This document shows positions 1-24,785 of a stretch of DNA of 64,000 nt, piece after piece. Origin of the DNA: an uncultured Gammaproteobacteria bacterium (GTDB lineage: Bacteria; Patescibacteriota; Patescibacteriia; UBA9934); NCBI GenBank assembly GCA_964613815.1, contig CAZTKG010000003.1, forward strand, positions 54,903 to 118,902, given 5' to 3'. The notes beneath the pieces were generated by a model. That model had not been told where the DNA came from, made no database searches, and worked only from the letters and a program-made list of their open reading frames with translations. Each line of letters begins with the position of its first letter. Within the stretch, counting starts at the first letter, position 1. The translations under genes and the position numbers were made by a program.

Positions 1-1923
1 CTCAGCTGCATGGATCGCTTCTCCAAAATCTAGGTCGATCGTGAGGTCGTAATCCCTAGCGCCCATTTGCTTTTCTACGTGAAGTTGGTAGATCCCTTTT
101 TTGATCGCTTTTGATACGGATTCTGGGAGAAGATATTGATAAGTGACTGTTCGTGATGCTCCTGGTTCAATGGAAGTAAATGCTCCAAAGCTACTGAATC
201 CGAGCTCATCTGTAATTGTGACTTCGTCTGGCGTTTCATCTGGGTTCCAGTATAAGTCACCAATGAGGGTGCCGCTTGCGCCAAGGAATTCACTTCCTTC
301 TGGAACGTAGGCCCGTACGTAGGTTCGGTAGCGTGAGACGGTCTCTGAGAATTCTCCGTTATGGTTATAGGTGATGCTTACGGTCGCCTTGTGACGCTCG
401 TCTTCTACAGGCACGATGCTGTAATTGATCTCGCGCGCGACTACCCCATCCGACTTCAGCGCCCCAAGGTTTGCATCGGCGACCATCAGAAAGTCATCCG
501 CGCTATTTGTCATGGATCCTGCCCATCCCGCATCTTCGAATACGTTCTGCGTGTCTTCATTGAAGCTTGTGAGCGCGATCTTCTTTTGATCAAACCCAGC
601 CACAACTGCCTCTGCGACCCTTGACCAATCCTTTAGCGGCAGTGCGAATAATTCTTTTAAGACGACACCTGTAAGCTCACCTACAACATCCTTTCGATCT
701 TCCCGAGCGATTCCTTGGTCTACGTACGCAAATTCTACGAGATGCTCGAGATCGTCACCTAAGTTCTCTGGCGTGAACGTAACACCGCCCGCCTCGACAG
801 GCCCGATGATTTCTAAGATGTCTTCTGCCATGTTGATACTGAAACCGATGACACCGTGGATTTCTGGAACAGGCTCTTCCGCGACAGAGAGCTCTTGCCG
901 CATAAGATCTACGGCAAATTGACTTGATGTTGGAAAGTCTGGTGACCAGTTTGCGTCTCTGAAGTACCAGTTTTTGAGATTGAGATACTCTGCGAGCGGC
1001 TGAGGTGGCTCGACGCGATAATCCGGGTCTCCGGCAACAAGTCTATCTACAGCGTATGAGTCGTCTATTTTTTGTTCGATGAGCTCACCACCTTGCATGA
1101 GTAAAAGACCATAGACGCCAATAAACCCTCCGCCTGGACGCAGCTCGTTATTGTTCAAGAAGAGGAGTAGCCATTGTCGATCCTCGTCTAGACCCGCGAT
1201 TTCATCAACCGATGCTGCGAATGGAACAAGAAGGTCCATGCCGGCAATGAGCCCCGGGAATAGCTCTTGAAATGGCTCGATCGCCTCGTTTAGCTTTGGG
1301 TGAAGCTCTAGTGCCATGAGCTCGTTAATGTCATCTACCGCAATCTTGAGGTTGACTTGGATTTCCTTGAGATCATCGACCGACCTATGAAGCTCCATGA
1401 GCAGTTCTGCCTTTACCTCTGGACTTATGCTTGCATATGTATCTACTTCTGATAAATCGCCAGCTGGATCGATATGCGCTCGCGCTTCTGTGACGACGCC
1501 ATAGACGTTTGCGATGACCGTAAGCGCGTTTCCGAAAGCCTGCACAGACGCGTCGCTTGCTTCCAATGTGAGGCGCAGCCCGCTTATGTAGTCACCAGCG
1601 AACGGTATCCATTCGGCGAATTTGAGCATATGGATCGCTGAGCGCATTTGCTCGAGACCATTTTGGACGTAGATAATGTTTTCGCTTGCCTCTTCGAAAT
1701 TTAACTCCGTTACCGCATCTTGCGTTTTTGCAAACCACCTGTTCACCTCCACCGCTCCTGATGTAAATCTTCCGACGGCAAATAAAGTAAAAGCCAGTGC
1801 TCCGAGCAGAAGGACACATAGGGACCAAAACACTATACGCTTTTTGCGTCTCTTCTTTGGTCTTGGTTCGTGATGCTGCCCTCCTGCGATGGGTGCGTTA
1901 GGGATCTGAAATAGATCTTCCAT
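1..1923 (-). CDS. DUF4012-domain membrane-anchored protein (partial, runs off the window start)
   Basis: The ORF track does not list it because no stop codon falls inside the window. My manual minus-strand translation from the ATG at 1921-1923 is open to coordinate 1. An N-terminal basic stretch plus one TM (RIVFWSLCVLLLGALAFTLFAV) is followed by LLLFLNNNELRPGGGFIGVYGLLLMQGGEL, which I recognise as the DUF4012 signature. Confidence 0.6.
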   Translation of the reverse strand, partial: MEDLFQIPNAPIAGGQHHEPRPKKRRKKRIVFWSLCVLLLGALAFTLFAVGRFTSGAVEVNRWFAKTQDAVTELNFEEASENIIYVQNGLEQMRSAIHMLKFAEWIPFAGDYISGLRLTLEASDASVQAFGNALTVIANVYGVVTEARAHIDPAGDLSEVDTYASISPEVKAELLMELHRSVDDLKEIQVNLKIAVDDINELMALELHPKLNEAIEPFQELFPGLIAGMDLLVPFAASVDEIAGLDEDRQWLLLFLNNNELRPGGGFIGVYGLLLMQGGELIEQKIDDSYAVDRLVAGDPDYRVEPPQPLAEYLNLKNWYFRDANWSPDFPTSSQFAVDLMRQELSVAEEPVPEIHGVIGFSINMAEDILEIIGPVEAGGVTFTPENLGDDLEHLVEFAYVDQGIAREDRKDVVGELTGVVLKELFALPLKDWSRVAEAVVAGFDQKKIALTSFNEDTQNVFEDAGWAGSMTNSADDFLMVADANLGALKSDGVVAREINYSIVPVEDERHKATVSITYNHNGEFSETVSRYRTYVRAYVPEGSEFLGASGTLIGDLYWNPDETPDEVTITDELGFSSFGAFTSIEPGASRTVTYQYLLPESVSKAIKKGIYQLHVEKQMGARDYDLTIDLDFGEAIHAAE

Positions 1924-2761
1924 GTTGACTATGTGCTAACCTTGGATTTTCTTTGTCTTTGTACTTTTTGTAGTACCTGAGAAAGCTCTGGATTTGAATC
2001 CAGGCAAATCTATTTGTGAGTTGACTGAGAAGCCCCCCTTTTGCCGATGCTCTTCCGTGATAATGCATCATTGTTGCCATTGGCATGTAGACGACGCGGA
2101 ATCCATTTTCCCAGAACCTTCTACACAAATCATTGTCTTCATAATACATGAAAAATTGCTCGTCGAACAAACCGACCTGATCCAAGTGTGCCCGCCTTGT
2201 GAAAAGCGCCGCACCCATCAGGGAGTCAACATTTATGATCTCATTGTGACTAACGTCTTGCATCAGATATTCTTCCACTGCCGCACTTGCGTGCGGGAGC
2301 TTTCCGAGAAACGTTCTTCGATATGCCGGAAGCATAAACGTCGGCTGACGAACACACGAGTATTGCAGTGATCCGTCCGGGTTTGTGAGCTTAGGACCGG
2401 CGATTCCAACGTCTGCGTTGTCGTCCATGAATGCCTTGAGCTCGTCGAGCGCACCTGGTGAGACAACGATGTCCGGGTTGAATATTAGGACGTACTCCCC
2501 TTTTGCGATGTTTATTCCTTGATTCATCGCCCCGCCGAAGCCAAGGTTTTTTGCTTGTGGGAGATGCCGGATCCAAGGGAATTCTTTTTTGAGCATTTCT
2601 GCGACGCCAGCTGGAGGATTGTTGTCGATAATGATGATTTCGTAGGCGCACCTTGGAGCAGAACGAACAATCCCTCGAAGCGTTTGCCTCAGGGATTTTT
2701 TCTTGAATGTATGGACGATGAGAATACTTACATCGACGTTACGTGCTCTTTTGGCCGACAT
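1898..2761 (-). CDS. GT2-family glycosyltransferase (GT-A fold)
   Basis: 287 aa. N-terminal YEIIIIDNNPP and FNPDIVV DxD-like motifs are typical of WcaA/rhamnosyltransferase-like GT2. It sits in tandem with a second GT2. Confidence 0.8.
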   Translation of the reverse strand: MSAKRARNVDVSILIVHTFKKKSLRQTLRGIVRSAPRCAYEIIIIDNNPPAGVAEMLKKEFPWIRHLPQAKNLGFGGAMNQGINIAKGEYVLIFNPDIVVSPGALDELKAFMDDNADVGIAGPKLTNPDGSLQYSCVRQPTFMLPAYRRTFLGKLPHASAAVEEYLMQDVSHNEIINVDSLMGAALFTRRAHLDQVGLFDEQFFMYYEDNDLCRRFWENGFRVVYMPMATMMHYHGRASAKGGLLSQLTNRFAWIQIQSFLRYYKKYKDKENPRLAHSQHGRSISDP

Positions 2762-3791
2762 ATGTTCGTAATTCAGCCTCTGAAGTCCTTTTATTCTTAA
2801 AGATGTGACGCCTTTTCTTTAGCATTTTTGGCAATAATTTGCCAATTTGCAGAAGGCGCCTTCTTGTTTCCGGCTCAAAGATAGCTCCGTACATCATGCG
2901 ACCACCTTGACCAAGAATGATCCATGGAGCATGAATGATTGCGGTTGATAGAGCGAGATTTTTTATGAGCATCAATGCCTGATTGCGTGTTGATAGCGCA
3001 GCGAAGAATGGGCGCTGCGTTCTGCGGTTCTTGAGGCGATCTTTGAGGGACTGTTTTTCTTTCCCGTACATCCCTCGGTAGTGGTACGCGACGGCTTTTG
3101 GAGCGAATCTGGTTTGATGTCCTTTTCTGGCAAGACGCATGGCAAGGTCACAGTCTTCTTTGTAAGTAAAAAACTCTGCATCTAGCCATTCTTTTTGGTA
3201 TCTAATATCTTGCAAAGCCTCTTTTTTGATCAGTGCCATCGCAAGCGAGGCACCGAAAAGTGTTTTTTTGAGATCGTACTGACCCCTATCTACCTCTCCC
3301 GCTCCGCGATCGGTGAAACGCCAACCCTTCCATGGTGTGAGCCCTGTTGAATCAATGATGTCGGATTTTACCGTTGTACGAAGAGATTCGTCTCCAGCGT
3401 TTTCGTAGAAACACCGGAGAAGCTTTGGCTGGATAACGCTTATGCTATTTGATGATTTGATCGCCTTAACCATCTCTTCCACTGCTGTCGGTTGAAGAAT
3501 GAGGTCCGCGTTCAGGAATAGTACCGCCGATTCTTCATCGTCATCCTGAATGCGGCTCATGGTGTGTTCAAGGAGTTGGTTGTGACCACCGGCGAAGCCG
3601 AGGTTTTTTGCGTGTCTTCCAGCGAGAGCTCTTGGGTATTTTTCTCGGATGAATTGCGGGGAACCGTCTGTACTTCCATTGTCAAAAACCCGTACAACGA
3701 GGTTTTGATAGGTTTGCGCCTCAAGGGACTCGAAGAGGTCTTCGAGGTAGTCTTTTTCGTTCCAGGTGAGGATATGGGCATAGACTCTCAT
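2739..3791 (-). CDS. GT2-family glycosyltransferase
   Basis: 350 aa with VRVFDNGSTDGS and ADLIL motifs, a GT-A fold. It overlaps its downstream neighbour by 23 nt. Confidence 0.75.
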   Translation of the reverse strand: MRVYAHILTWNEKDYLEDLFESLEAQTYQNLVVRVFDNGSTDGSPQFIREKYPRALAGRHAKNLGFAGGHNQLLEHTMSRIQDDDEESAVLFLNADLILQPTAVEEMVKAIKSSNSISVIQPKLLRCFYENAGDESLRTTVKSDIIDSTGLTPWKGWRFTDRGAGEVDRGQYDLKKTLFGASLAMALIKKEALQDIRYQKEWLDAEFFTYKEDCDLAMRLARKGHQTRFAPKAVAYHYRGMYGKEKQSLKDRLKNRRTQRPFFAALSTRNQALMLIKNLALSTAIIHAPWIILGQGGRMMYGAIFEPETRRRLLQIGKLLPKMLKKRRHIFKNKRTSEAELRTYVGQKST

Positions 3792-3858
3792 GAGGAAGAG
3801 TGTACCCTGAGTTTTGTAAATAAAAAAGTACCTGCTGCGTGGAGCAGACAGGTCGGAC

Positions 3859-4167
3859 CTAGTGGCGCTCGTGGCAGCGCTTGGTGGTGCCCTTCACCTT
3901 GTGGGTGTGGACAGGCGCTGTGCGGGCCGGGACGTGACGCGGCACTGGGCGCTTGGCGATCTTGCGCGGCGGCGGCGGCGCTGGACGCGCGGCGGGGACG
4001 ACGGTGGCACCAGGGATGAGGACTGGCACAGCGATGCAAGTGACCGCTCCTGGGATGAGGAGAGGTGTGCAGGTCTGGATAGTGACCCTGGCAGCCGCGG
4101 CCGTGCCCGGGCCAGCGAAGACGATTCCGAAAATCGAAAACGCCAAGATTGAACGAAGAAGACTCAT
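3859..4167 (-). CDS. small secreted Cys/Pro-rich repeat peptide (hypothetical)
   Basis: GGAGG sits 8 nt upstream of the second Met (TTTGGAGGAACTCATG). A signal-peptide-like N-terminus (MSLLRSILAFSIFGIVFAGPGTAAAA) precedes a tandem LIPGA(V/T)T repeat and a basic, Pro-rich tail. The DNA is much more GC-rich than its surroundings. Confidence 0.35.
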   Translation of the reverse strand: MSLLRSILAFSIFGIVFAGPGTAAAARVTIQTCTPLLIPGAVTCIAVPVLIPGATVVPAARPAPPPPRKIAKRPVPRHVPARTAPVHTHKVKGTTKRCHERH

Positions 4168-4222
4168 GAGTTCCTCCAAATGACAGCGCTGGCGTGCGCC
4201 GCCTTCCTAAGACTAGGATACC

Positions 4223-5704
4223 CTATCCTTTCTTTTTTGTTACGTTGAAGCCAAGATATTTTCCGAGCATGAAGCGGGTTTGCGCATCTATTGCTGGGAA
4301 TGCGCCAAAAACGACGAATGTGATTGGGAGAAGTGCCCATTGTGCAATCATGACGATCCAATTTCGCCTGTGCTTACCATGCGGGCGATGTGGGAGGAGG
4401 AAAAGGCTGAGAATGGCAGAGGCAAATACCCCCAGTGTCGCAATCTGCATCATGAATTGAAGGGTGAATGGGGAGTTTGTGATGATGGATTCGGTGGAAT
4501 TTTGTGCGATGAAAAACGGGAGGTAGCCTAACACAAAAATCAGCATTGGCGCGGATGCCCAGGTGTACATTCCTTCGATATGATTGAAGATGTATTTGAG
4601 TTTTTTAAGCCTCGGGATGAGTGGCTTGTTTTTGAATTGCGTCATCATGTACGGAAGGTGCTCTACGCCCCAGGCCCATCTGCGTTGCTGCTTGTAGAGG
4701 GCCTTGAGTCCGTCCAGATATGACTCTCCCTCGACAGCATCCATGTGAACGGGGATGAATAGCGGCTCTACCCGATAGTCGCCGTCGTAATGCAGGAGGC
4801 CTTGCATGAAGATTCTGGAGTCTTCGGAAACAAGGTCCGGCTCCCAGAAGCCAACATCGACGAGCATCTGCCATGACATGGAGTGGGAGGAAAATGTCCA
4901 AAGCCGTTCTGGGCGCATAAGCTCACTCATGAGCCAGAATGTTGTTCCAAATGCGGCGACACGTACTGGAGCTGATGACTCCCAAATATTGTTCGAAAAG
5001 AGGACTACTGGTTGGTACGAGGCCCTGAGCGGATCTTTTACGGTCAGAAATGCGTGCGCGAGGCGAGCCAAGTATTGTGGGTGCGGGATTGTGTCGACGT
5101 CGAACGCTGATACGATGATGTTCTCGTAAGGAATGTTTGCGCTATCAATGTCGACCTTTGCTTTTTCTGCTACCCACTTCAGGTTTGAACCCTTCCCGGG
5201 GATCTCCCCTTCTAAGCCTTTTGGATGTAATGTGAAGTTTAGTGATGCAAATACTCCTGAAAACTCCTTTGTTAGCTCTTTTTTATGACTTTCGAACTGT
5301 TCCTTGTCCCCCTCTTCCCCGCCAACATAGACGTGGATCTTTTTGTTTGGGTATGAGGAAGCATCTAAAGATTTCAGCGCCTTTCTGAGGATCGTAATGC
5401 CTTCTTTGTAGGTTGGGAGAAATATTACATGCTCGATTCGTCCCCAGTCCTTAATTTCTTCTACTTTTTGAAGCCAATCTGTAGAGCGCTCGCGTTTGAA
5501 GTTTTTGTAGGCGACTGAAAGATAAATAAGGAAGTAGAGCACCCTAAGCGCCCAGTATAGATCAAAAATGATGATGAATACTGCCGCAGCCACTGGGTAA
5601 AAAAATGAAGCTCCGAGGGCTAAGATGAATGTTGACCAAATAAGGAAGCCGGGGACGACTTCCCAAAATCTATTCTTTCCATACTGGCCAAACGTGGTTG
5701 CCAT
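4223..5704 (-). CDS. processive membrane GT2 beta-glycosyltransferase (cellulose/chitin/hyaluronan-synthase-like)
   Basis: 493 aa with two N-terminal TMs, a DxD (FDVDTIPHP), the QQRRW motif (QxxRW of processive GT2 synthases) and a C-terminal TM bundle. Confidence 0.75.
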   Translation of the reverse strand: MATTFGQYGKNRFWEVVPGFLIWSTFILALGASFFYPVAAAVFIIIFDLYWALRVLYFLIYLSVAYKNFKRERSTDWLQKVEEIKDWGRIEHVIFLPTYKEGITILRKALKSLDASSYPNKKIHVYVGGEEGDKEQFESHKKELTKEFSGVFASLNFTLHPKGLEGEIPGKGSNLKWVAEKAKVDIDSANIPYENIIVSAFDVDTIPHPQYLARLAHAFLTVKDPLRASYQPVVLFSNNIWESSAPVRVAAFGTTFWLMSELMRPERLWTFSSHSMSWQMLVDVGFWEPDLVSEDSRIFMQGLLHYDGDYRVEPLFIPVHMDAVEGESYLDGLKALYKQQRRWAWGVEHLPYMMTQFKNKPLIPRLKKLKYIFNHIEGMYTWASAPMLIFVLGYLPFFIAQNSTESIITNSPFTLQFMMQIATLGVFASAILSLFLLPHRPHGKHRRNWIVMIAQWALLPITFVVFGAFPAIDAQTRFMLGKYLGFNVTKKKG

Positions 5705-5738
5705 AAGGTAAGGACGCTAGCACAAATCTGTCCTTTTA

Positions 5739-6659
5739 TCAAGTCTTGAGATAGCGACGCATCGCAAGATATGTCGTTGCCGTGCTGAGGAGGAAGAATC
5801 CAATAAACTGCGCGCCAAATAGCTCGATCGCGTAAGTATTGAAGTACCCTGTAAAATCTATTGCTACATCTCCAAAGAATTTATGCACCCAGATGTCGAA
5901 TGTATCAAGTGATAGGTAGACCCCGAGCGCGACAGCACCAACGGAGAAGACGCTATAGATGAATGCCTCGATGATGAACGGGGCTCGCACAAACCAGTTT
6001 CCCGCTCCGACAAGCTTCATGATGCCGATCTCATCCCTGTGGATGTAGATAGCGACTCGAATCGTGTTAAAGACGATGAGCGCCGTCATGACGATAAAAA
6101 ATGCGATAAGGCCAACGCCTGCGATACGAACGCGTTCAGAAAGCGTTTCAATTCGCTCGATGACTAGCTCGTAATCTTCGTAATCCTTCTCTTTTATGTG
6201 CGGTGAAAATTCCGGCGTCTCTACCGCCTCAAGGATGAGCGCGAAGTCTTCAGCAGATTCGGATGAAATGACAAGCGCATCTCCGAATGGGTTTGTCCCG
6301 ATCTCTTCCAAGGAAGAGAGAATGGTGTCATCCCCCGCATAACGCTCTTGGAATATCGCAAGCGCATCCTCGGCTGTTATTACCCTTGCCTCGCGAACCT
6401 GAGCTAAATCCTGTACGTATGCCTGTGCGGCACTCACGATGTCCTCTGGAGTTTCCGGCTGAAAGTAGACGAGAATCTCGATCTTTTCCTCGACTGACTC
6501 GAGAGCTGCATCTGCGATAACATTAATGAATACGACAACATTTATGGTTACGAGCGTGAGAACGAAGATAGAAAATGTCACCAATGAAAGCCAAAAATTC
6601 CGGAAAATGTTCTGGATAGCGAATTTGATGACGCGAAATATTGAGAGAAAGAAGCTCAT
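5739..6659 (-). CDS. ftsX: FtsX-like permease
   Basis: 306 aa with an N-terminal TM, a large extracytoplasmic loop and three C-terminal TMs. It overlaps ftsE by 4 nt. Confidence 0.75.
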   Translation of the reverse strand: MSFFLSIFRVIKFAIQNIFRNFWLSLVTFSIFVLTLVTINVVVFINVIADAALESVEEKIEILVYFQPETPEDIVSAAQAYVQDLAQVREARVITAEDALAIFQERYAGDDTILSSLEEIGTNPFGDALVISSESAEDFALILEAVETPEFSPHIKEKDYEDYELVIERIETLSERVRIAGVGLIAFFIVMTALIVFNTIRVAIYIHRDEIGIMKLVGAGNWFVRAPFIIEAFIYSVFSVGAVALGVYLSLDTFDIWVHKFFGDVAIDFTGYFNTYAIELFGAQFIGFFLLSTATTYLAMRRYLKT

Positions 6660-7407: not shown

Positions 7408-7482
7408 TGGAGCCATTGGGCGGATTTGAACCGCCGGCCTATGCTTTACGAAAGCATTGCTCTACCCCTGAGCTACAATGGC
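7408..7482 (-). tRNA. tRNA-Thr (anticodon CGU)
   Basis: Reverse complement GCCATTGTAGCTCAGGGGTAGAGCAATGCTTTCGTAAAGCATAGGCCGGCGGTTCAAATCCGCCCAATGGCTCCA folds as a cloverleaf. Anticodon loop TTCGTAA, with an encoded CCA. Confidence 0.8.
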
Positions 7483-7499: not shown

Positions 7500-7730
7500 G
7501 CCGTGTCATCGTTCTTTTTCTCCGCTTCTCGACTACGTACCATTAGTACGTCTTACTGCGATGCTCGAAAGAAGAACGATGACACGGCATTTTCCCTGCG
7601 TCTGGGTCTTTGCCAGTGCGATGTCATCATTCTTTTTCTCCGCTTCTCGACTACGTACCATTAGTACGTCTTACTGCGATGCTCGAAAGAAGAACGATGA
7701 CACGGCATTTTCCCTGCGTCTGGGTCTTTG
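7500..7730. repeat. tandem duplication (about 112 + 118 nt) of a long-hairpin element
   Basis: Copy 1 has perfect arms gccgtgtcatcgttcttt / aaagaagaacgatgacacggc around a roughly 50-nt loop that contains an inner acgtac/gtacgt hairpin. Copy 2 is identical except for 3 substitutions in the left arm. Both end in attttccctgcgtctgggtctttg. Confidence 0.6.
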
Positions 7731-17743: not shown

Positions 17744-17819
17744 GCGCCGGTAGCTCAGTTGGTAGAGCAAGGGCCTTTTAAGCCCGTGGTCGTGGGTTCG
17801 AGTCCCACCCGGCGTACCA
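17744..17819 (+). tRNA. tRNA-Lys (anticodon UUU)
   Basis: GCGCCGGTAGCTCAGTTGGTAGAGCAAGGGCCTTTTAAGCCCGTGGTCGTGGGTTCGAGTCCCACCCGGCGTACCA. Anticodon loop CTTTTAA, T-loop GGTTCGAGTCC, encoded CCA. Confidence 0.85.
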
Positions 17820-17851: not shown

Positions 17852-17927
17852 GATGCGCAGCTTTAGGCACATTGACACGCCCCTTTCTTTATGACACTCT
17901 ACGCCTCCACCTTCACAAGGACTCGAC

Positions 17928-18872
17928 ATGAAACAAAAGAATAGTCATGTTGGCATTCTGGGCGATTTCTTTAATAGCCCCTTTATCACTCGAATAGGAC
18001 TCTGCCTTACTTCGAGGGAAGCTGGTCTTTGGTCGCAGATCTTGAGCTTGGAAGACGACCAAGACTTTCAGACGAACTCAGTGCGGCTCCGTGCATTCAT
18101 TGGCCGACTTGTTGATGCTCGCGTTGTTCAGATGATCGAGGAGGGTCGATATCGAATTACCGTGCCACTTGATCGGATCGTTTGCGTGGAGATTTATCGG
18201 CGCGCGAGAGTTAAGGTGCTTCCTGCCGAAGTTGAGACGATCACCTCTTTGCAGCGAACTGTCGTGAACATCCTTACGCTTCATGGGCGTACGTCTGTCA
18301 ATTCTGTACAGATGATGGCTGGGTCAAGGTGTCCGATTGAACGACTCGGAATCCTGATTGATGGACCCGATTCAGAGCCACTGCTTTGCCCGATTGGCTT
18401 TGCCATGGCCGAGCTTGTGCCTATGTCGGCGAGCGCCCTTGGCGATAAGCAGCGTAAGCTCCCGTTTCCACTTCCAGACTTCTACCTCGCAGATCCTGGC
18501 CCGAATATTCCGCGGAAATGGATGGTTGGAAGCGCTCTGATGGCACCACTTGCGGAGACGTGGGAAGTGCTCATCGCGATTGTTCGCGGCGTGGTTTCGC
18601 CGATGAGTAATCGACTGCTCGCGAAGCGGAAGAGACGACCTCTAGCACCCCCCTCGCCTGCTCCGCCAGCTGTCATCGCCCCTCCGGAGCCAACTCCCGT
18701 AGCACCGATACCGACACCCCCTCCGGATCCTGATCCTCTTCCGGCACTTCCTCTAGGGCTCTTGCCTGCCCTTTCTGCGCTTCTGTCTCGCGCTCATCCA
18801 ACCTCCGCGCGGAATATTCTGCGGCAACTCGGCGAGCTCAGCGGATCCGGAGATACATCGCCTCCACCTTAG
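17928..18872 (+). CDS. hypothetical protein with a Pro-rich C-terminal tail (higher-GC island)
   Basis: 314 aa. The N-terminal region may be winged-helix-like. The C-terminus is PPSPAPPAVIAPPEPTPVAPIPTPPPDPDP. No motif recognised. Confidence 0.45.
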   Translation: MKQKNSHVGILGDFFNSPFITRIGLCLTSREAGLWSQILSLEDDQDFQTNSVRLRAFIGRLVDARVVQMIEEGRYRITVPLDRIVCVEIYRRARVKVLPAEVETITSLQRTVVNILTLHGRTSVNSVQMMAGSRCPIERLGILIDGPDSEPLLCPIGFAMAELVPMSASALGDKQRKLPFPLPDFYLADPGPNIPRKWMVGSALMAPLAETWEVLIAIVRGVVSPMSNRLLAKRKRRPLAPPSPAPPAVIAPPEPTPVAPIPTPPPDPDPLPALPLGLLPALSALLSRAHPTSARNILRQLGELSGSGDTSPPP

Positions 18873-18916
18873 CGTCTTGCGCTGAGGTTTTTTTCATCTG
18901 TGAATAACCTTTACGC

Positions 18917-18940
18917 TCCCATCTCGACCCTGTGGAGATA
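18917..18940. repeat. half copy of the 27-bp-arm palindromic element
   Basis: tcccatctcgaccctgtggagata matches the left arm of the elements at 23722 and 24786 with 2 mismatches. No right arm. Confidence 0.5.
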
Positions 18941-18956
18941 GGAAGGGACTGAAGAA

Positions 18957-18991
18957 CTTTTTCATAAAAATCACACCCGTTTGCGGGTGTG
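18957..18991 (-). terminator. rho-independent terminator of 18992..20056
   Basis: On the minus strand, directly after the TAG stop: CACACCCG-caaa-CGGGTGTG followed by ATTTTTAT. Confidence 0.6.
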
Positions 18992-20056
18992 CTATGACGA
19001 TGTCAGCTTGCCTAACTCGCTCATGACGCGAGCCTGCATGGCCCTTGGAAGACTTTCGAGATGCGCCTTGTGGATGAGCATAGCCACGATCATGTCGACG
19101 CCGGTGAGGCGTTCGTCGACGCGAGCCATGACGCGCTGCTCTAGAGCGTCCATGCCGGTGAACTCGTCGATCGATGCGAGGACCGTGGCTTGGATGCGGG
19201 CTTCGGCGCCGTCGAACTCCTCCAGCCGTGCGCGTACCTCGTCGAGGCCACTCAGACGCTCTTCGATGAGAGCAACGAGTCGGTCCTCGATACCTTCGAT
19301 ACCAGCAAGCCCTGCAGTGATTTTTCGCGTGGACTCTCTTCGGAGGGATAGCCGAATTCGCTCCTCTGCACCAGCGAGCTGCGCAGCTCGCTGTTCGAGC
19401 GCCTGCTCCAGCTCTTCGATGCGCCGGATTCGATCGTCCATCTCGGTCATGACCGCGTGTTCGACGGCGCGTGCGATCTGACTCTGAGATTCGTCGACTT
19501 GCGTGAGCGCGCTGTCAAGCCTTTCTATGACGCGTGCCTCGACCACTCGAGCAATATGTACCTCGAATGCAGTCATCGGCGACTCGGGTACGGCTTTGCG
19601 TCCTGACTCAGCAGCGTCCACCTGAGGCGACTGAGGATCTCCGCCTCCACCGCCTTCGCTGCCCTCTCCTTGATGATCATCGGCCTCGGGAGCGCTCCTC
19701 CTCGCCCCCTCGAGCGCCTCCTGCCAGGGCAGAATGTCTACAACGACGTCGGTCCACTCGTAGAACTTTGGCCTCTTGCCAGCCCCTTCAGGCATGACAA
19801 CACCATCCGGCCTCGGGACCTCCCTGACCACGCCGTGTGTCACCGCTGTTCGCAATGCGCTCCCGGCGCTTGCGCGACTCTTGTATACCCCCTCGAAGTC
19901 CTCTTCGAGCATCAGCCAGACGCCCTGACCTTGAGTCCTCCAGAAGATGCGCCAGAATACTCCGTTGAACATTGTTCGCCGCATTGCAGGGACTGGACTT
20001 CTTGCAAGGACCACATCTGGACGAGTTCCGATGCCTTGTCTCTGACCTTCTGTCAT
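18992..20056 (-). CDS. hypothetical protein with C-terminal coiled-coil repeats (higher-GC island)
   Basis: 354 aa. A Gly/Glu-rich linker is followed by repeated R(I/V)xxLExRLxxxD heptad-like units. Confidence 0.45.
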   Translation of the reverse strand: MTEGQRQGIGTRPDVVLARSPVPAMRRTMFNGVFWRIFWRTQGQGVWLMLEEDFEGVYKSRASAGSALRTAVTHGVVREVPRPDGVVMPEGAGKRPKFYEWTDVVVDILPWQEALEGARRSAPEADDHQGEGSEGGGGGDPQSPQVDAAESGRKAVPESPMTAFEVHIARVVEARVIERLDSALTQVDESQSQIARAVEHAVMTEMDDRIRRIEELEQALEQRAAQLAGAEERIRLSLRRESTRKITAGLAGIEGIEDRLVALIEERLSGLDEVRARLEEFDGAEARIQATVLASIDEFTGMDALEQRVMARVDERLTGVDMIVAMLIHKAHLESLPRAMQARVMSELGKLTSS

Positions 20057-20168
20057 GATTTCTCCTTTTGATTATTGTTCTGTCCGATTTACCGGACAAG
20101 AGGAGAACTTTTTCATTTTTTGGCTCATTTGTCAAGCATTTTGGGTGCTCATGCTATGATCTAGCGGT

Positions 20169-21373
20169 ATGCAAAAAGCTCTTGAATCGAATATTTGGAA
20201 GTACGCGGTTTATCTTGTGACGAATAAGAAGGTGTATGTCGCCATCTTGAGTGCGTATTATTTGACGATTCCGAATGTGACGGCGCAGAGCATTGGGCTG
20301 ATTACGCTTGTTTCGATGCTTGGTGGGTTCTTTTTTGAGATTCCTAGTGGGTATGTTTCGGATAAGATTGGGCATAAGCAGGCGCTTATTTTGGCAAAGG
20401 TGCTTGGACTGATCTCTACTGTTCTCTATCTTTTTGCGGATAATCTTCTTCTTTTGATCTTTGGCGCTGTCATGCTCAGTATTGGCGTCGCGTTTCATAG
20501 CGGGACCGGGAGTGCGTTTTTGCATGAGACGCTTTCTGGACTGAAGCGGGCGAAAGATTATGCGCGGGTTTCTGGGAAGCTTAGTTCGATTGGGTTCGCG
20601 GTGCCGATTGTGCTTTCTACGACGATTCCGTTTTTGGTGAGTATTGATTATAGTTTGCCGTTTTTGATTGCGCTTGTGCTGGATACTGCAGGTGTGATTG
20701 TAGCGATGTCGCTCGTCACCCCGAAAGCAAGCCAGCATGAGATTGAGGAGATTCGGAAGACGAACTTTTGGCAGGTGATGAAGTCTGGTCGGGAGATGAA
20801 GGTGTTTAGCTTCTTGATATTCTCTGGAGTTTTGGCGGCATTCTTGATGTCTGCTGGACGCTTTCGGGCGCCTTACCAGGTATTTTTGGAAGTTCCGGTG
20901 ATTTGGTATGGGGTCTTTCATGGGACTGGGCGGATTTTGCGTCTATTTTGCTCGCGTATACTGGGAAGATTCGAGAGCGGATTTCGCTTTTTGGGCTTTA
21001 TCGGTTTCAGTTATTGATCTTTGGCTTGTTTTTAATTGCACTTGGGGTTTCGACGTCGGCGCCGGTAATTGTAGGGTCCCTGCTTTTGATGAATGGATTC
21101 CAGTGGGGGCTGAGTAAGGTTGATCAGAGTTTTATGATGGACCTGCTTGGGCAGAGTAAGTTTAAGGCGACGCTTCTTTCTGTTCGGGGGCAGATTTGGC
21201 TGGTGACCGGGGCGACTCTTGGGTTTTTGCTTGGGACGGTGATTGATTGGGTTGGGTATCGGGAAGGGTTTTTGTGGTATGCGGTGGCGTTTTTGATTCT
21301 TCTTGTGCCGATGTATGTATATATTCATGTTCGGCATCGGGATGTGAATGAGAAGCTTTTGTCTGTGAAATAA
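20169..21373 (+). pseudogene. MFS transporter, frameshifted (two ORFs 20169..21017 and 20903..21373 in different frames)
   Basis: Both pieces are polytopic and MFS-like. The frame switches near 20890-20950. This could be a pseudogene or a sequencing error. Confidence 0.55.
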
Positions 21374-21405
21374 AACTCCCGCCACGTGTGTGACGGGTTT
21401 CCCCT

Positions 21406-22868
21406 TCAGTGCGCTTTGGCGCCTGATTTGGGGAAGGCGTTGTAGATCCTGATGGACAGGACGGCGCCGAGGATGACGAATGGGAGGATGACGAGGGGCC
21501 AGGCCATCCAGGTGCTGGGGTCTTTGGCTGCGTCTCCGGTCGTCAGGAAGTAGCCCATGGTGATGGAGTGCAGGCCGGTGCCGATGTAGACGCATCCGTC
21601 GACGATGCCGACGGCCTTTCCGGTGTTCTTGACGCCAGAGAAGTCGGCTGCTGCGGTGCCAGAGAGGATGCCGTGCACGCCGAGGACGCAGGCTGCGACC
21701 ACGAGGACTCCTGCGCCGGTGATCCAGGAACCCATGCCAGGGCCGTTCGCTGTGAGCGACGCGACGATGGCGACGATGGCGACGGTCATGGCTCCGTAGG
21801 AGATCATGACCATCGGGCCGCGCTTGGAGCCGAAGAACTTGTCGGAGATCCAGCCAGTCATGAAGCCGCCGGTGACGCCACAGATGAGGAGACAGAAGCC
21901 CCAGTTGCTTGTGACGTGGAAGTCCTTGTAGAAGCCGACCGAGTGGGCGAACTGCGGGTAGTATTGGAAGACGCCGTTTCGGATGATGCCGGAGCAGAAT
22001 TCGATGGCGCAGATGATCAGGAGGACGCGATGCTTCTTGCCGGTCGCGATGGTCTTGATCATCTCCCAAAGGCCGAGCGTTCGGTCTGCGACCTGTTGGT
22101 CACCGGTCTCGAAGTCCTCGAACTTACCCGTGTCGCTTGGCTTGTTGCGGAGGAAGATCAGCATGGCCAGGAACCATGGGATCGCGAAGAGTGCCGGGAA
22201 GAGGAACATCCACCAGTTCTGGTCTACGCCGGTGTTTGCGGCGCCGAGCAGGTTGTAGAAGATGGACTCGGTGACATTGAGGTCCGCGAGCACCACGTCC
22301 GCCTTGCGCGTGACTGTGCGGATGGCGTATCCCCAGTCGAAGGCGAAGTAGATGCCGGTGCTGATCATGATGCCGAAGATGGTACCGAACGTGCCGCGTT
22401 CGCGGACGTGGAACCAGGGCATCTTGGTGGTGACGATCGACATGGCTCCCAGGCTCTGGAAGAACATGTTGACTGCGTAGAGCACGGTGAGCGCATGGGT
22501 GAGCTGGATGTCCCAGCCCTTCATCATGACGCCGTAGATGACGGCAGCCATGGCGAGATTGGCTGTTACAGCCCCAGCGACGCCGACGAGCATGCCGCGA
22601 CGGCCGCCGTAGCGATCGACGAGCGGACCCCGTTCACCATGAAGCCGATGAAGTAGAAGATCGCGCCAATGCCGAAGATGAAGCCGAACTCGTTGATGTC
22701 CATGAGCTCGTCGCCGAGGGCGCTTTTTGCCGGGTTGAGGCAGTAGCGCATGAACATCAGGCTGGCGTAGCCGAAGCCGAGCGGGAACCAGTTGAGAAAG
22801 CGTCGGAAACGGTATTCCGGCGGGTGGATTGGGACGTTGTTTTTGTCGAATTTGAGTGTACGTGCCAT
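21406..22868 (-). pseudogene. GlpT/UhpT-family organophosphate:phosphate antiporter (MFS), frameshifted
   Basis: The N-terminal piece (22566..22868) aligns by eye to the E. coli GlpT N-terminus (YRRLR.. vs YRFRRF..; GYAAYY vs GYASLMF). The 395-aa piece continues in another frame. The frameshift is near 22590-22610. About 62% GC. GGAGG sits 6 nt upstream of the ATG. Confidence 0.55.
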
Positions 22869-22945
22869 CGATTACCTCCGTCGAAGACGGGGGTAGTTAA
22901 CCTTTTATTGAGGTTATTGTCAATGAATTTATGCCAGTATTTACC

Positions 22946-22974
22946 TTGACAAATTGAGAATTATTGGCTAAATT
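22946..22974 (+). promoter_or_regulatory. candidate sigma70-type promoter for 23018..23668
   Basis: TTGACA (22946-22951), a 17-nt spacer, then TAAATT (22969-22974), in an AT-rich intergenic stretch. Confidence 0.35.
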
Positions 22975-23017
22975 TTTGAGTCTTCGCTATGGTTAGGTAG
23001 TGAGACAGGGAGAGAAT

Positions 23018-23668
23018 ATGCACCTTTTTTGGCTGATTTTTGTCGCGATCGCCTCGGCGGGGACCGAGTGGGCGGAGCGTTTGGATAAGGTCCAAGGCGA
23101 CTGTCGATCTGACCAACTGGTCTCGTGGGCGTCTGCGTACCACTCTGACTGTGATGCTGCGGTGGCCGTCGATGGCGTGCCGGGCATCATGTTCGATGTG
23201 GTGAGTGCGTACTGGGGCGATGGCCAGTTGAATCTCAGTGTCGTGGATGACAAGGTTGTCTACTTCGGCCTGATCGGCGAGGAGAAGGCGGCGGCGTACG
23301 GGATCGATCAGGGCGTGTACGTCGTGTGGGGCGATCGGATGACGCGGACGCCGAACGGCGTTGCCTCGCATCCGCATGTGCTTCTGAAAGCCGACGGGAC
23401 CGAGAAGCGTTTGAACTTTGCTTTTTTCGCCGACATCGACGGGCAACTTGCCTTTGAGGCGTATGGCGAAGAGGGTCAGGGTCGGACGCTCGTGATCGGG
23501 GAACGTACGGCGAACAACACGCGGAAGGTTCGGCATCTGAAGATGGTAAGTCTGTGCAAGGACGATGACATCATGACGCGCGAATGCAAGCGTAAGTCCG
23601 TGCATGTGAGCACGGTCTTCGATGATGAGTGGACTGAGACCGCGTGGGTCAGCGCCAAGGCTCGGTGA
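23018..23668 (+). CDS. hypothetical secreted protein
   Basis: I chose the start at MHLFWLIFVAIASAGTEWA, which is signal-peptide-like with GGGAGAGAA upstream. No recognised domain. Confidence 0.45.
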   Translation: MHLFWLIFVAIASAGTEWAERLDKVQGDCRSDQLVSWASAYHSDCDAAVAVDGVPGIMFDVVSAYWGDGQLNLSVVDDKVVYFGLIGEEKAAAYGIDQGVYVVWGDRMTRTPNGVASHPHVLLKADGTEKRLNFAFFADIDGQLAFEAYGEEGQGRTLVIGERTANNTRKVRHLKMVSLCKDDDIMTRECKRKSVHVSTVFDDEWTETAWVSAKAR

Positions 23669-23721
23669 GTCTCGTAGCACCTGAATGGGTGCTCTTTTTG
23701 TTTTTTCGCCTTTCCGATGTC

Positions 23722-23795
23722 TCCCATCTCGACCTTGCGGAGAGATCTCTTCGAACACATTAGCGGCAAGATCTCTCCGCAAGGTCGAGATGGGA
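23722..23795. repeat. palindromic intergenic element (27-bp perfect inverted arms, 20-nt spacer)
   Basis: tcccatctcgaccttgcggagagatct (23722-23748) and its exact reverse complement (23769-23795). Confidence 0.7.
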
Positions 23796-23857
23796 AATAA
23801 TGATTATGATCCATGAAAAAAATCCCTCCACTTAGGGACGGATGCGGTACTGGGTGC

Positions 23858-24697
23858 TCAGACGAGCTTGAACCAGCGTTTGGAGACGAGTTCGTAGTTG
23901 GCGACGCCGAGGAGGGCTCCGATGGTGGCGGAGGCGATGAAGACGGCGAAGACTTCGGGGCGGGTCATGGTGGGGTCGTAGAGGACGAGGTAGCCGAAGA
24001 CGGTGGCGAGGCCGGTGTCGAAGGCGCAGATGAGGCGTTCGTGGCAGTGGATTTTGCGGAAGAACTTTCCGATGCCGATGATGATGAGTGCCAGGATTGC
24101 GCAGACGATGGCTACAGGGAATATGCATCCTGTTACTGCCCAGATTATTGCGTTCTCGTAATCGAGATCTGCATACTCGTACTCATGCTTTTCCCGATAG
24201 TCTGACGACCTCCAAGATCTCTTTAAGATGAACTCTGCTCCGAATTCGGTGAGCAGCTTGAATACTGCTGTAGCCAGAGTTGAGATGAGAAGGATCAGCA
24301 CTGGAATAGCAATGTTTCCCATCAGAATACTTCCCGACCCACCAATGATCGCTTCGAATGCGATCTCTTCGAAGGTCATCCCGGTCTCAGCGTGCCGGAA
24401 CAGGATCCAGGCAAGCGGACTGAGTGCGATTGCCGTGAAGAAGAAGAGATGGAATGGGCGCGGCTGCTCTGCCCACTTGGCAACACCTCTTCTGATTTCG
24501 ATCAGGCCCTGACAGCTCTGCTGTGCCACTTCCACTGCAGCCTTGTGGGTCTCCCTGAAGCGATATGACAGGAAAGCGGTGCCCATGCCGACGATGAGGC
24601 CGAGCCACCAGATGCTCGCTGGGAGGGTGATCGCTGTGCCGATACCGGTGGTGACACCGAGGATGATCGCGAGGGCGATTTCGTGTCTGGTTTTCAT
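23858..24697 (-). CDS. hypothetical polytopic membrane protein
   Basis: 279 aa with about 7 predicted TMs. It is flanked on both sides by the palindromic elements. Confidence 0.5.
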   Translation of the reverse strand: MKTRHEIALAIILGVTTGIGTAITLPASIWWLGLIVGMGTAFLSYRFRETHKAAVEVAQQSCQGLIEIRRGVAKWAEQPRPFHLFFFTAIALSPLAWILFRHAETGMTFEEIAFEAIIGGSGSILMGNIAIPVLILLISTLATAVFKLLTEFGAEFILKRSWRSSDYREKHEYEYADLDYENAIIWAVTGCIFPVAIVCAILALIIIGIGKFFRKIHCHERLICAFDTGLATVFGYLVLYDPTMTRPEVFAVFIASATIGALLGVANYELVSKRWFKLV

Positions 24698-24785
24698 GAA
24701 AAGAGCTCCTGTGCGGACGGGATGTCCGGTGAAATTACCGTAACTTAGCTTTTTATTGGCGTCAATGACCGGATCATTCTCTTTT

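Follow-up and report, generated by a model that had tools for sequence, protein, structure and literature searches.

We examined a 64,000-nucleotide (nt) stretch of contig CAZTKG010000003.1 (hereafter the window, meaning the whole stretch at its full length), which derives from an uncultured population of ultra-small Patescibacteria (Candidate Phyla Radiation, CPR), and within it a small open reading frame (ORF) encoding 102 amino acids (aa) that lies between two glycosyltransferase genes of the GT2 family. On the minus strand the genes follow the order FtsE, FtsX, a 493-aa GT2, the small ORF, a 350-aa GT2 (GT2-350), a 287-aa GT2, DUF4012 and MreB. The 493-aa GT2 is a multi-pass protein that we call the synthase, and the 431 nt between its stop codon and the start of GT2-350, hereafter the insert, are rich in GC (62.1% over positions 3790-4222, 66.3% over the ORF and 70.9% over positions 3860-4110). 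The 200-nt maximum of 73.5%, at positions 3914-4113, is the highest in the window (mean 50.6%, standard deviation 5.0%, z = 4.6), which bears out the GC-rich segment that a first-pass annotation of this DNA had placed between a processive GT2 synthase and the next GT2 gene. That annotation also reported a 102-aa product on the strand of the operon, and the ORF encodes exactly the peptide that it quoted. We give an even chance to the reading that this is an acquired or young orphan gene, co-transcribed with the synthase and encoding a small protein of the envelope whose tail is strongly basic and rich in Pro. The features of the locus are listed in Table 1.

Table 1. Features at the junction between the synthase and GT2-350 genes, in window coordinates, and the two ORFs found at the same junction in related loci, in the coordinates of those loci. 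GC1/2/3, GC content at the first, second and third codon positions.
Feature	Position	Strand	Remarks
Candidate gene, 102-aa ORF	3859..4167	-	ATG at 4167, TAG 3859-3861; GC1/2/3 = 0.66/0.60/0.75
Shine-Dalgarno (SD) sequence, GGAGG	4172..4176	-	5 nt upstream of ATG
Putative Sec-type signal peptide or signal-anchor, aa 1-26, MSLLRSILAFSIFGIVFAGPGTAAAA	4090..4167	-	heuristic only; GC3 0.62
Second hydrophobic, Pro/Gly-punctuated segment, aa 35-60, from a 13-aa (39-nt) duplication, PLLIPGAVTCIAV / PVLIPGATVVPAA	3988..4065	-	
Basic Pro/His-rich tail, aa 58-102 (12 Lys/Arg, 1 Glu, 10 Pro, 5 His)	3862..3996	-	PPPP at 3967-3978 = (GCG)5 run
Terminator-like hairpin (8 pairs, 3 G-C) and CTTTTTTATT	3819..3850	-	consensus scan
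GC-rich insert, 431 nt, between synthase stop and GT2-350 start	3792..4222	.	
Antisense 96-aa ORF, putative shadow, GTG start, Arg/Asp/Gly-rich	3862..4152	+	GC1/2/3 = 0.77/0.61/0.66
Upstream neighbour, synthase: 493-aa multi-pass GT2 (PF13632)	4223..5704	-	stop codon 4223-4225
Downstream neighbour, GT2-350: 350-aa GT2 (PF00535)	2739..3791	-	ATG at 3791
L018 (GCA_043818555.1), unannotated 241-aa ORF at junction	5647-6369	+	operon strand
L030 (GCA_022565055.1), 178-aa ORF at junction	4560-5093	+	operon strand

The composition of the ORF departs from that of its host by more than its peptide demands. The GC content at third codon positions (GC3) is 0.745, whereas host codon usage would give the same peptide a value of 0.489 ± 0.048 (z = 5.3), and amino-acid composition accounts for only about half of the GC excess. 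Codons 1-26, the signal region, have a near-host composition, and the remainder of the ORF is GC-rich. Most relatives lack the insert at this junction, and no homologue was found on either strand; together with the GC3 offset, these results support the proposal that the segment is foreign or recently evolved. The window holds no second copy of the 3792-4222 segment, and DNA searches of plasmid and phage collections with the insert gave no match. A 14-nt inverted repeat (93%; 3749-3762 and 4151-4164) links the opening codons of the ORF to codons 10-15 of GT2-350, and the 6-nt sequence TACCCT occurs at both ends of the insert, which is within chance. We considered and rejected a repeated or mobile element, there being no other copy in the window and only these short terminal repeats.

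As evidence of coding, the signals at the start of the ORF carry weight, unlike the openness of its frame. The GGAGG ribosome-binding site described in the first-pass annotation is present. Only 14 sites of the form GGAGG-N4-9-ATG occur on this strand in the 64 kb, and a recognisable SD within 20 nt of the start is found for only about 8 of the 43 long ORFs of the window, that of the small ORF being among the strongest. The combination of GGAGG with a basic-then-hydrophobic N-terminus makes this start unique among the 1,595 start codons of the window that open at least 50 codons, and, if independence of the two features is assumed, 0.016 such starts would be expected among the 15 candidate starts of the insert region. 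ORF length was rejected as coding evidence, because the longest stop-free run reaches 102 codons or more in 76% of simulated sequences with the same first-order composition (P = 0.76). By host-trained codon log-odds the sense frame is the best of the six (+0.06, compared with -0.18 for the antisense ORF), and this best-scoring frame coincides with the frame that bears the start signals. Its codon positions also follow the order expected of a coding frame, with GC3 (0.75) above GC1 (0.66) and GC1 above GC2 (0.60).

The start of the ORF is separated from the synthase stop by 55 nt, and a consensus scan of positions 3300-4700 found no promoter-like site; this spacing and the lack of such a site suggest that the ORF is co-transcribed with the synthase. 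At its other end, the terminator-like hairpin (3850-3829) begins 9 nt past the ORF stop, and the hairpin with its T-run lies 28 nt before the ATG of GT2-350. The consensus terminator scan returned 3 sites in the region, compared with 1.6 expected.

Public annotation favours the opposite strand. A 96-aa plus-strand gene is called by gene finders in all five public contigs of the population, and its product is present in the NCBI, ENA, JGI and Logan protein sets; the sense 102-aa product is absent, as a called protein, from a collection of 15 billion proteins. That the antisense ORF is the true gene, as these calls imply, is nevertheless very improbable in our judgement. It begins with a GTG that has no SD, it overlaps the terminator hairpin, its GC1 exceeds its GC3 in the pattern typical of shadow frames, and its codon log-odds fall below those of the sense frame. 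The product is of low complexity and matches only itself in 5.8 billion protein clusters, and a wrong-strand call of the same sort covers a clearly gene-like ORF at the corresponding junction of a relative (L018, described below). We regard the antisense ORF as a probable shadow of the sense frame. The three other reading frames of the insert gave no Pfam match.

The N-terminus of the 102-aa product is signal-peptide-like, as had been noted earlier. It consists of a short basic start, MSLLR (with R5), a 14-residue hydrophobic core, SILAFSIFGIVFAG, and an Ala-rich c-region, PGTAAAA, and by inspection these form n-, h- and c-regions with a small-x-small motif (PGTAAAA/R). A 15-residue loop separates the c-region from the second hydrophobic segment. 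The units PLLIPGAVTCIAV and PVLIPGATVVPAA of that segment are identical at 7 of 13 positions and share a P[LV]LIPGA unit, and at the DNA level only a 16-nt core is repeated (4007-4022 and 4046-4061, 88%, spacing 39); Tandem Repeats Finder reported only the (GCG)5 of the PPPP codons. The tandem repeat of 14 aa and 42 nt that had been proposed was thus overstated; what is present is a half-conserved duplication with a period of 13 aa and 39 nt. Residues 33-57 are more hydrophobic than the first segment, with a Kyte-Doolittle 19-residue mean of up to 2.08.

The PAPPPP stretch (aa 62-67) and the KRCHERH ending are both where they had been reported. The C-terminal tail contains 12 of the 14 Lys and Arg residues and has a charge of +11. 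Over the 102 aa the dominant residues are Pro (15), Ala (15) and Lys plus Arg (14), with three Cys, so that the earlier description of a Cys/Pro-rich peptide holds for Pro and is wrong for Cys. An example of a tryptic peptide of the product is VTIQTCTPLLIPGAVTCIAVPVLIPGATVVPAAR. According to the positive-inside rule, a basic tail that follows a hydrophobic segment stays in the cytoplasm; given the 12 Lys and Arg residues placed after the second segment, we prefer a small membrane protein with its basic tail in the cytoplasm to a peptide released by secretion. The earlier description of the product as secreted is doubtful, since the second hydrophobic segment and a tail with 12 Lys/Arg to one Glu argue for membrane retention. 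The first-pass annotation had also offered a bacteriocin-like peptide, and a secreted peptide of this kind would be small and cationic with a hydrophobic N-terminus, as the product is. We consider it highly unlikely, as the product has no double-glycine leader and matches no bacteriocin family, and the neighbouring genes are FtsE/FtsX, GT2s, DUF4012 and MreB, with no modification, immunity or C39-peptidase ABC (ATP-binding cassette) genes.

To place the insert among its relatives, we compared the junction between the synthase and the following GT2 gene in about 35 related loci (L numbers). The junction is closed, with a gap of -4 to +90 nt, in L002, L003, L005, L006, L007, L022, L024 and L026. 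Other loci carry at this position a malic enzyme (L001 and L020), a short-chain dehydrogenase (SDR; L021), an IS200/IS605-type transposase-like ORF (L023, 5761-6093, plus strand) or zinc-ribbon proteins (L008, L009, L012, L025 and L028), and the neighbours are entirely different in L019, L031 and L032. In L035 the junction holds a GC-rich gene of 151 aa on the opposite strand (about 68% GC in a genome of 43.5% GC; 4637-5092, minus strand). The L035 product looks cytosolic, and its gene has a GGAGG SD, has no family match and is flanked by hairpin terminators. Judging from gene content, the junction is an insertion hotspot, or recurrent landing site for foreign DNA, in related Patescibacteria, and the transposase-like ORF of L023 is consistent with the landing of mobile DNA there.

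Two of the closest relatives, L018 and L030, whose synthases are 67-68% identical to that of the window, carry an ORF of their own at this junction. The inserts of both are GC-rich (58-71%). Each ORF is preceded by an SD and encodes a signal peptide and, after it, a low-complexity basic body rich in His, Tyr, Pro and Arg, with a GC3 of 0.73-0.74 compared with 0.50-0.61 in the two flanking GT2 genes of each locus. The L018 ORF has a TTGACA-17-TATAAA promoter, and TTGACA is found upstream of the L030 start. Their products, L018p and L030p, are mutual homologues (composition-adjusted BLASTP, E = 2e-4) at 27-28% identity, whereas the corresponding synthases are 71% identical. The protein collection lacks the L018 ORF, the antisense strand having been called instead, and the L030 ORF was called on one short contig only. 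Both products have a very high content of His, Tyr, Ser, Thr and Arg and contain H-x-x-G-C-x-H-like motifs, by which they may bind metal.

The window ORF resembles these two in its junction, its strand, its own SD, its signal peptide and its GC3 excess over the host, and in all three products the c-region has the form A-x-P-[GA]-x-A, a hydrophobic stretch resembling a beta-strand comes next, and the tail is basic and of low complexity; their net charge is +13 to +15. They differ in length (178-241 aa for L018p and L030p, 102 aa for the window product) and in the His/Tyr/Ser/Thr-rich composition and H-x-x-G-C-x-H-like motifs of the longer proteins. A MAFFT alignment of the ORF products and a blastn comparison of the inserts showed no significant similarity between the window and L018 or L030. 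The L018p/L030p pair indicates that genes of this architecture exist at the junction and evolve too fast to be linked by sequence, which we count in favour of a translated window ORF. Because the pair diverges so fast, orthology of the window ORF is possible but unproven. It is possible, if doubtful, that the window ORF belongs to a hypervariable group of GC-rich genes at this junction, whose products would be exported, basic and of low complexity and which gene finders systematically miss or place on the wrong strand.

Besides the public calls on the opposite strand, several observations weigh against a translated small envelope protein. Each of the six frames contains a run of at least 75 codons free of stops, so that openness of the frame has no weight, and the expectation of starts with both an SD and a signal-like N-terminus over the whole window is 1.65, so that one such start is at the level of chance. 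The codon log-odds of 0.06 are far under those of host genes (mean 0.37, minimum -0.02) and barely above the best off-frame value of 0.053, and with a score this low the ORF does not look like a native gene. The product has no homologue in a word-indexed search of 5.8 billion protein clusters or in a full HMMER search of 1.84 billion representatives, and no match in Pfam, NCBIfam (E <= 1), PDB sequences or viral contigs. Its comparison with L018p and L030p gave a non-significant BLASTP E of 82 and an hhalign probability of 2.5%, confined to the signal peptide. The five public contigs of the same population (ENA, JGI and Logan; exact-product look-up) are 100% identical to the window at the locus, and this zero variation leaves no signal of purifying selection to read (source samples SAMN10231923 / ERZ23498905, JGI 3300007765 and 3300007770, SRR9166051 and SRR8062317); the nearest synthase homologues are 68% identical, with none between 68% and 100%. 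The product is of low complexity, and the four Pro in its putative second membrane segment are unusual. AlphaFold, run with no alignment, gave an overall pLDDT (predicted local distance difference test) of 62 and modelled aa 28-49 as a beta-hairpin (pLDDT about 75), not a helix; the low-confidence hairpin makes an exported, beta-rich form possible.

Many of these points fit a reading in which the insert is untranslated filler, either foreign GC-rich DNA or what decay has left of a longer gene inserted there (L030 and L018 offer examples in their ORFs of 178-241 aa), and in which the ORF arose by accident together with its SD and its hydrophobic start. We assign filler a lowish probability but regard it as a serious rival and the main one. 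It would account for the orphan status of both strands, the foreign codon usage, a coding score between those of real genes and off-frames, an open frame that is expected by chance, and a single start with SD and signal-like N-terminus, of which one per 64 kb is also expected by chance. It also agrees with a junction that collects unrelated inserts (malic enzyme, SDR, IS200-type transposase, zinc-ribbon proteins and the opposite-strand GC-rich gene of L035). What argues against filler is that only 0.016 starts of this kind are expected within the 431-nt region, that the ORF spans the gap from 55 nt past the upstream stop to the terminator-like hairpin, and that the best coding frame is the one with the start signals. 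The N-terminal part of the ORF is, moreover, host-like in composition, and analogous ORFs that are clearly gene-like occupy the same site in L018 and L030.

The position of the hairpin, starting 9 nt after the stop codon, raises the further reading that the ORF is a cis-acting leader or monitoring peptide. A ribosome that reached the end of the ORF, or stalled close to it, would occlude the 5' arm of the hairpin and so set read-through into the two downstream GT2 genes; the stall could occur at PPPP or at the His-rich end, and the N-terminal signal would couple it to membrane insertion in the manner of SecM, MifM and VemP, which are arrest peptides that monitor secretion or insertion. The window ORF is like them in being small, in beginning with a signal or anchor that a tail follows, in lying directly upstream of another gene and in containing a polyproline stretch. 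In addition, the predicted fold of the 431-nt transcript pairs the SD region of the ORF with CUCUUCCUC just upstream of the GT2-350 ATG, and the fold of the whole insert gives z = -3.6 for the operon strand, compared with -0.6 for the opposite one. The GGAGGAA of the ORF (4170-4178) can pair with UUCCUC (3792-3800) before that ATG, and with the 14-nt inverted repeat this pairing closes the whole insert in the predicted fold.

Such a monitoring function, including its stall site and its coupling to insertion, nonetheless strikes us as most improbable. Unlike SecM, MifM and VemP, the window ORF has no conserved arrest motif and is not conserved across relatives, which express their GT2 genes without such a leader; its PPPP is not C-terminal, being 35 codons away from the stop, and the gene downstream encodes a GT2, not a Sec or YidC component. 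No conservation stands behind any of the pairings, long-range pairs in a minimum free energy fold are unreliable, and the GC-rich core alone has z = -1.5. If the reading were true, it would describe a SecM/MifM-like device attached to envelope glycan synthesis in Patescibacteria. The GC-rich island and the operon-strand z of the whole insert could also point to a structured non-coding RNA, to which we attach very little probability. Rfam gave no match at the gathering score or at E <= 1, and the analogous inserts of L018 and L030 have z of about -1. The lack of an Rfam hit excludes a known RNA family, and a structured RNA was rejected on this lack and on the fall of the fold z from the insert to its GC-rich core.

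The placement of the ORF beside a synthase invites comparison with the small partner proteins of other GT2 enzymes. IcaD has about 100 aa, and PgaD consists of two membrane helices with a cytoplasmic C-terminus. PgaD and IcaD are mutually non-homologous small integral-membrane partners of the GT2 synthases PgaC and IcaA, respectively, and each is required for full glycosyltransferase activity (PMC7112194). Like these proteins (about 100-140 aa, with N-terminal hydrophobic segments), the window product has its gene directly behind that of a multi-pass GT2 synthase, at a distance of 55 nt and with the strand shared. It has two hydrophobic segments by the Kyte-Doolittle scale, the second being the Pro-containing segment modelled as a beta-hairpin. 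Unlike PgaD and IcaD, it matches no Pfam or NCBIfam model at E <= 1, its ORF is not co-conserved with the synthase, most relatives having no gene there, and it has a low-complexity tail rich in Pro, Arg and His. The idea of a conserved accessory subunit of the synthase is contradicted by the direct abutment of the synthase and GT2 genes in about eight relatives and by the lack of a match to PgaD, IcaD or any other family. At most, the product would be an accessory of the synthase that is specific to this lineage. The synthase itself is a divergent Patescibacteria GT2 without a close characterised relative, and no relative was detectable among solved structures. The ORF is like the orphan genes of horizontally acquired islets in its atypical composition and codon usage, lack of homologues, small size, low complexity and variable junction, and by these signs it falls in the generic category of taxonomically restricted (orphan) genes.

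The genes around the ORF form a conserved cluster, FtsE-FtsX-GT2-GT2-GT2-DUF4012-MreB. The same order, FtsE-FtsX-GT2(493)-GT2(350)-GT2(287)-DUF4012-MreB, recurs in many Patescibacteria (window 1-1923, minus strand; loci L013-L036). Such content points to a module of the cell envelope or of morphogenesis rather than to a classical exopolysaccharide (EPS) operon, and the EPS operon of the first-pass annotation was an interpretation that the conserved cluster does not favour. Elsewhere in the window, a direct repeat of about 109 nt with a period of 118 nt (7504-7612 and 7622-7730) lies just downstream of tRNA-Thr (7408-7482), and its copy number varies between contigs of the population, L014 differing from L013 and from the window. 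A second GC-rich, compositionally distinct block extends over about 17,900-24,700, starting beside tRNA-Lys (17744-17819), and holds a transporter-like ORF (21406-22593; GC3 0.86) together with several ORFs rich in Pro and Arg. The block has the look of a genomic island that integrated at the tRNA.

Our preferred explanation remains that of a real small gene on the strand of the operon. In this explanation the insert would be specific to the lineage, either horizontally acquired or recently evolved, at a junction that has been invaded repeatedly. The gene would be co-transcribed with the synthase and translated from its own strong SD, and a weak intrinsic terminator would follow it. The product would enter the Sec pathway through its N-terminal signal or anchor, and the second hydrophobic segment with its P[LV]LIPGA units, together with the Pro/His-rich tail of charge +11, would most likely hold it in the membrane. 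Two topologies are conceivable, a hairpin or a cleaved signal peptide followed by a stop-transfer anchor, either of which would leave the basic tail in the cytoplasm, where its contacts could be with anionic lipid or with the neighbouring glycosyltransferases, on their cytoplasmic side. The protein would then be a dispensable, fast-evolving accessory and not a core subunit.

The locus reveals no new conserved subunit of the synthase, and its wider importance is slight for now. Should the ORF be real, it would exemplify genes for small envelope proteins that standard pipelines either miss or place on the wrong strand, because their composition differs from that of the host. The same miscalling occurs over gene-like ORFs in two related genomes, and the small proteomes of Patescibacteria may therefore be undercounted at GC-rich islets.

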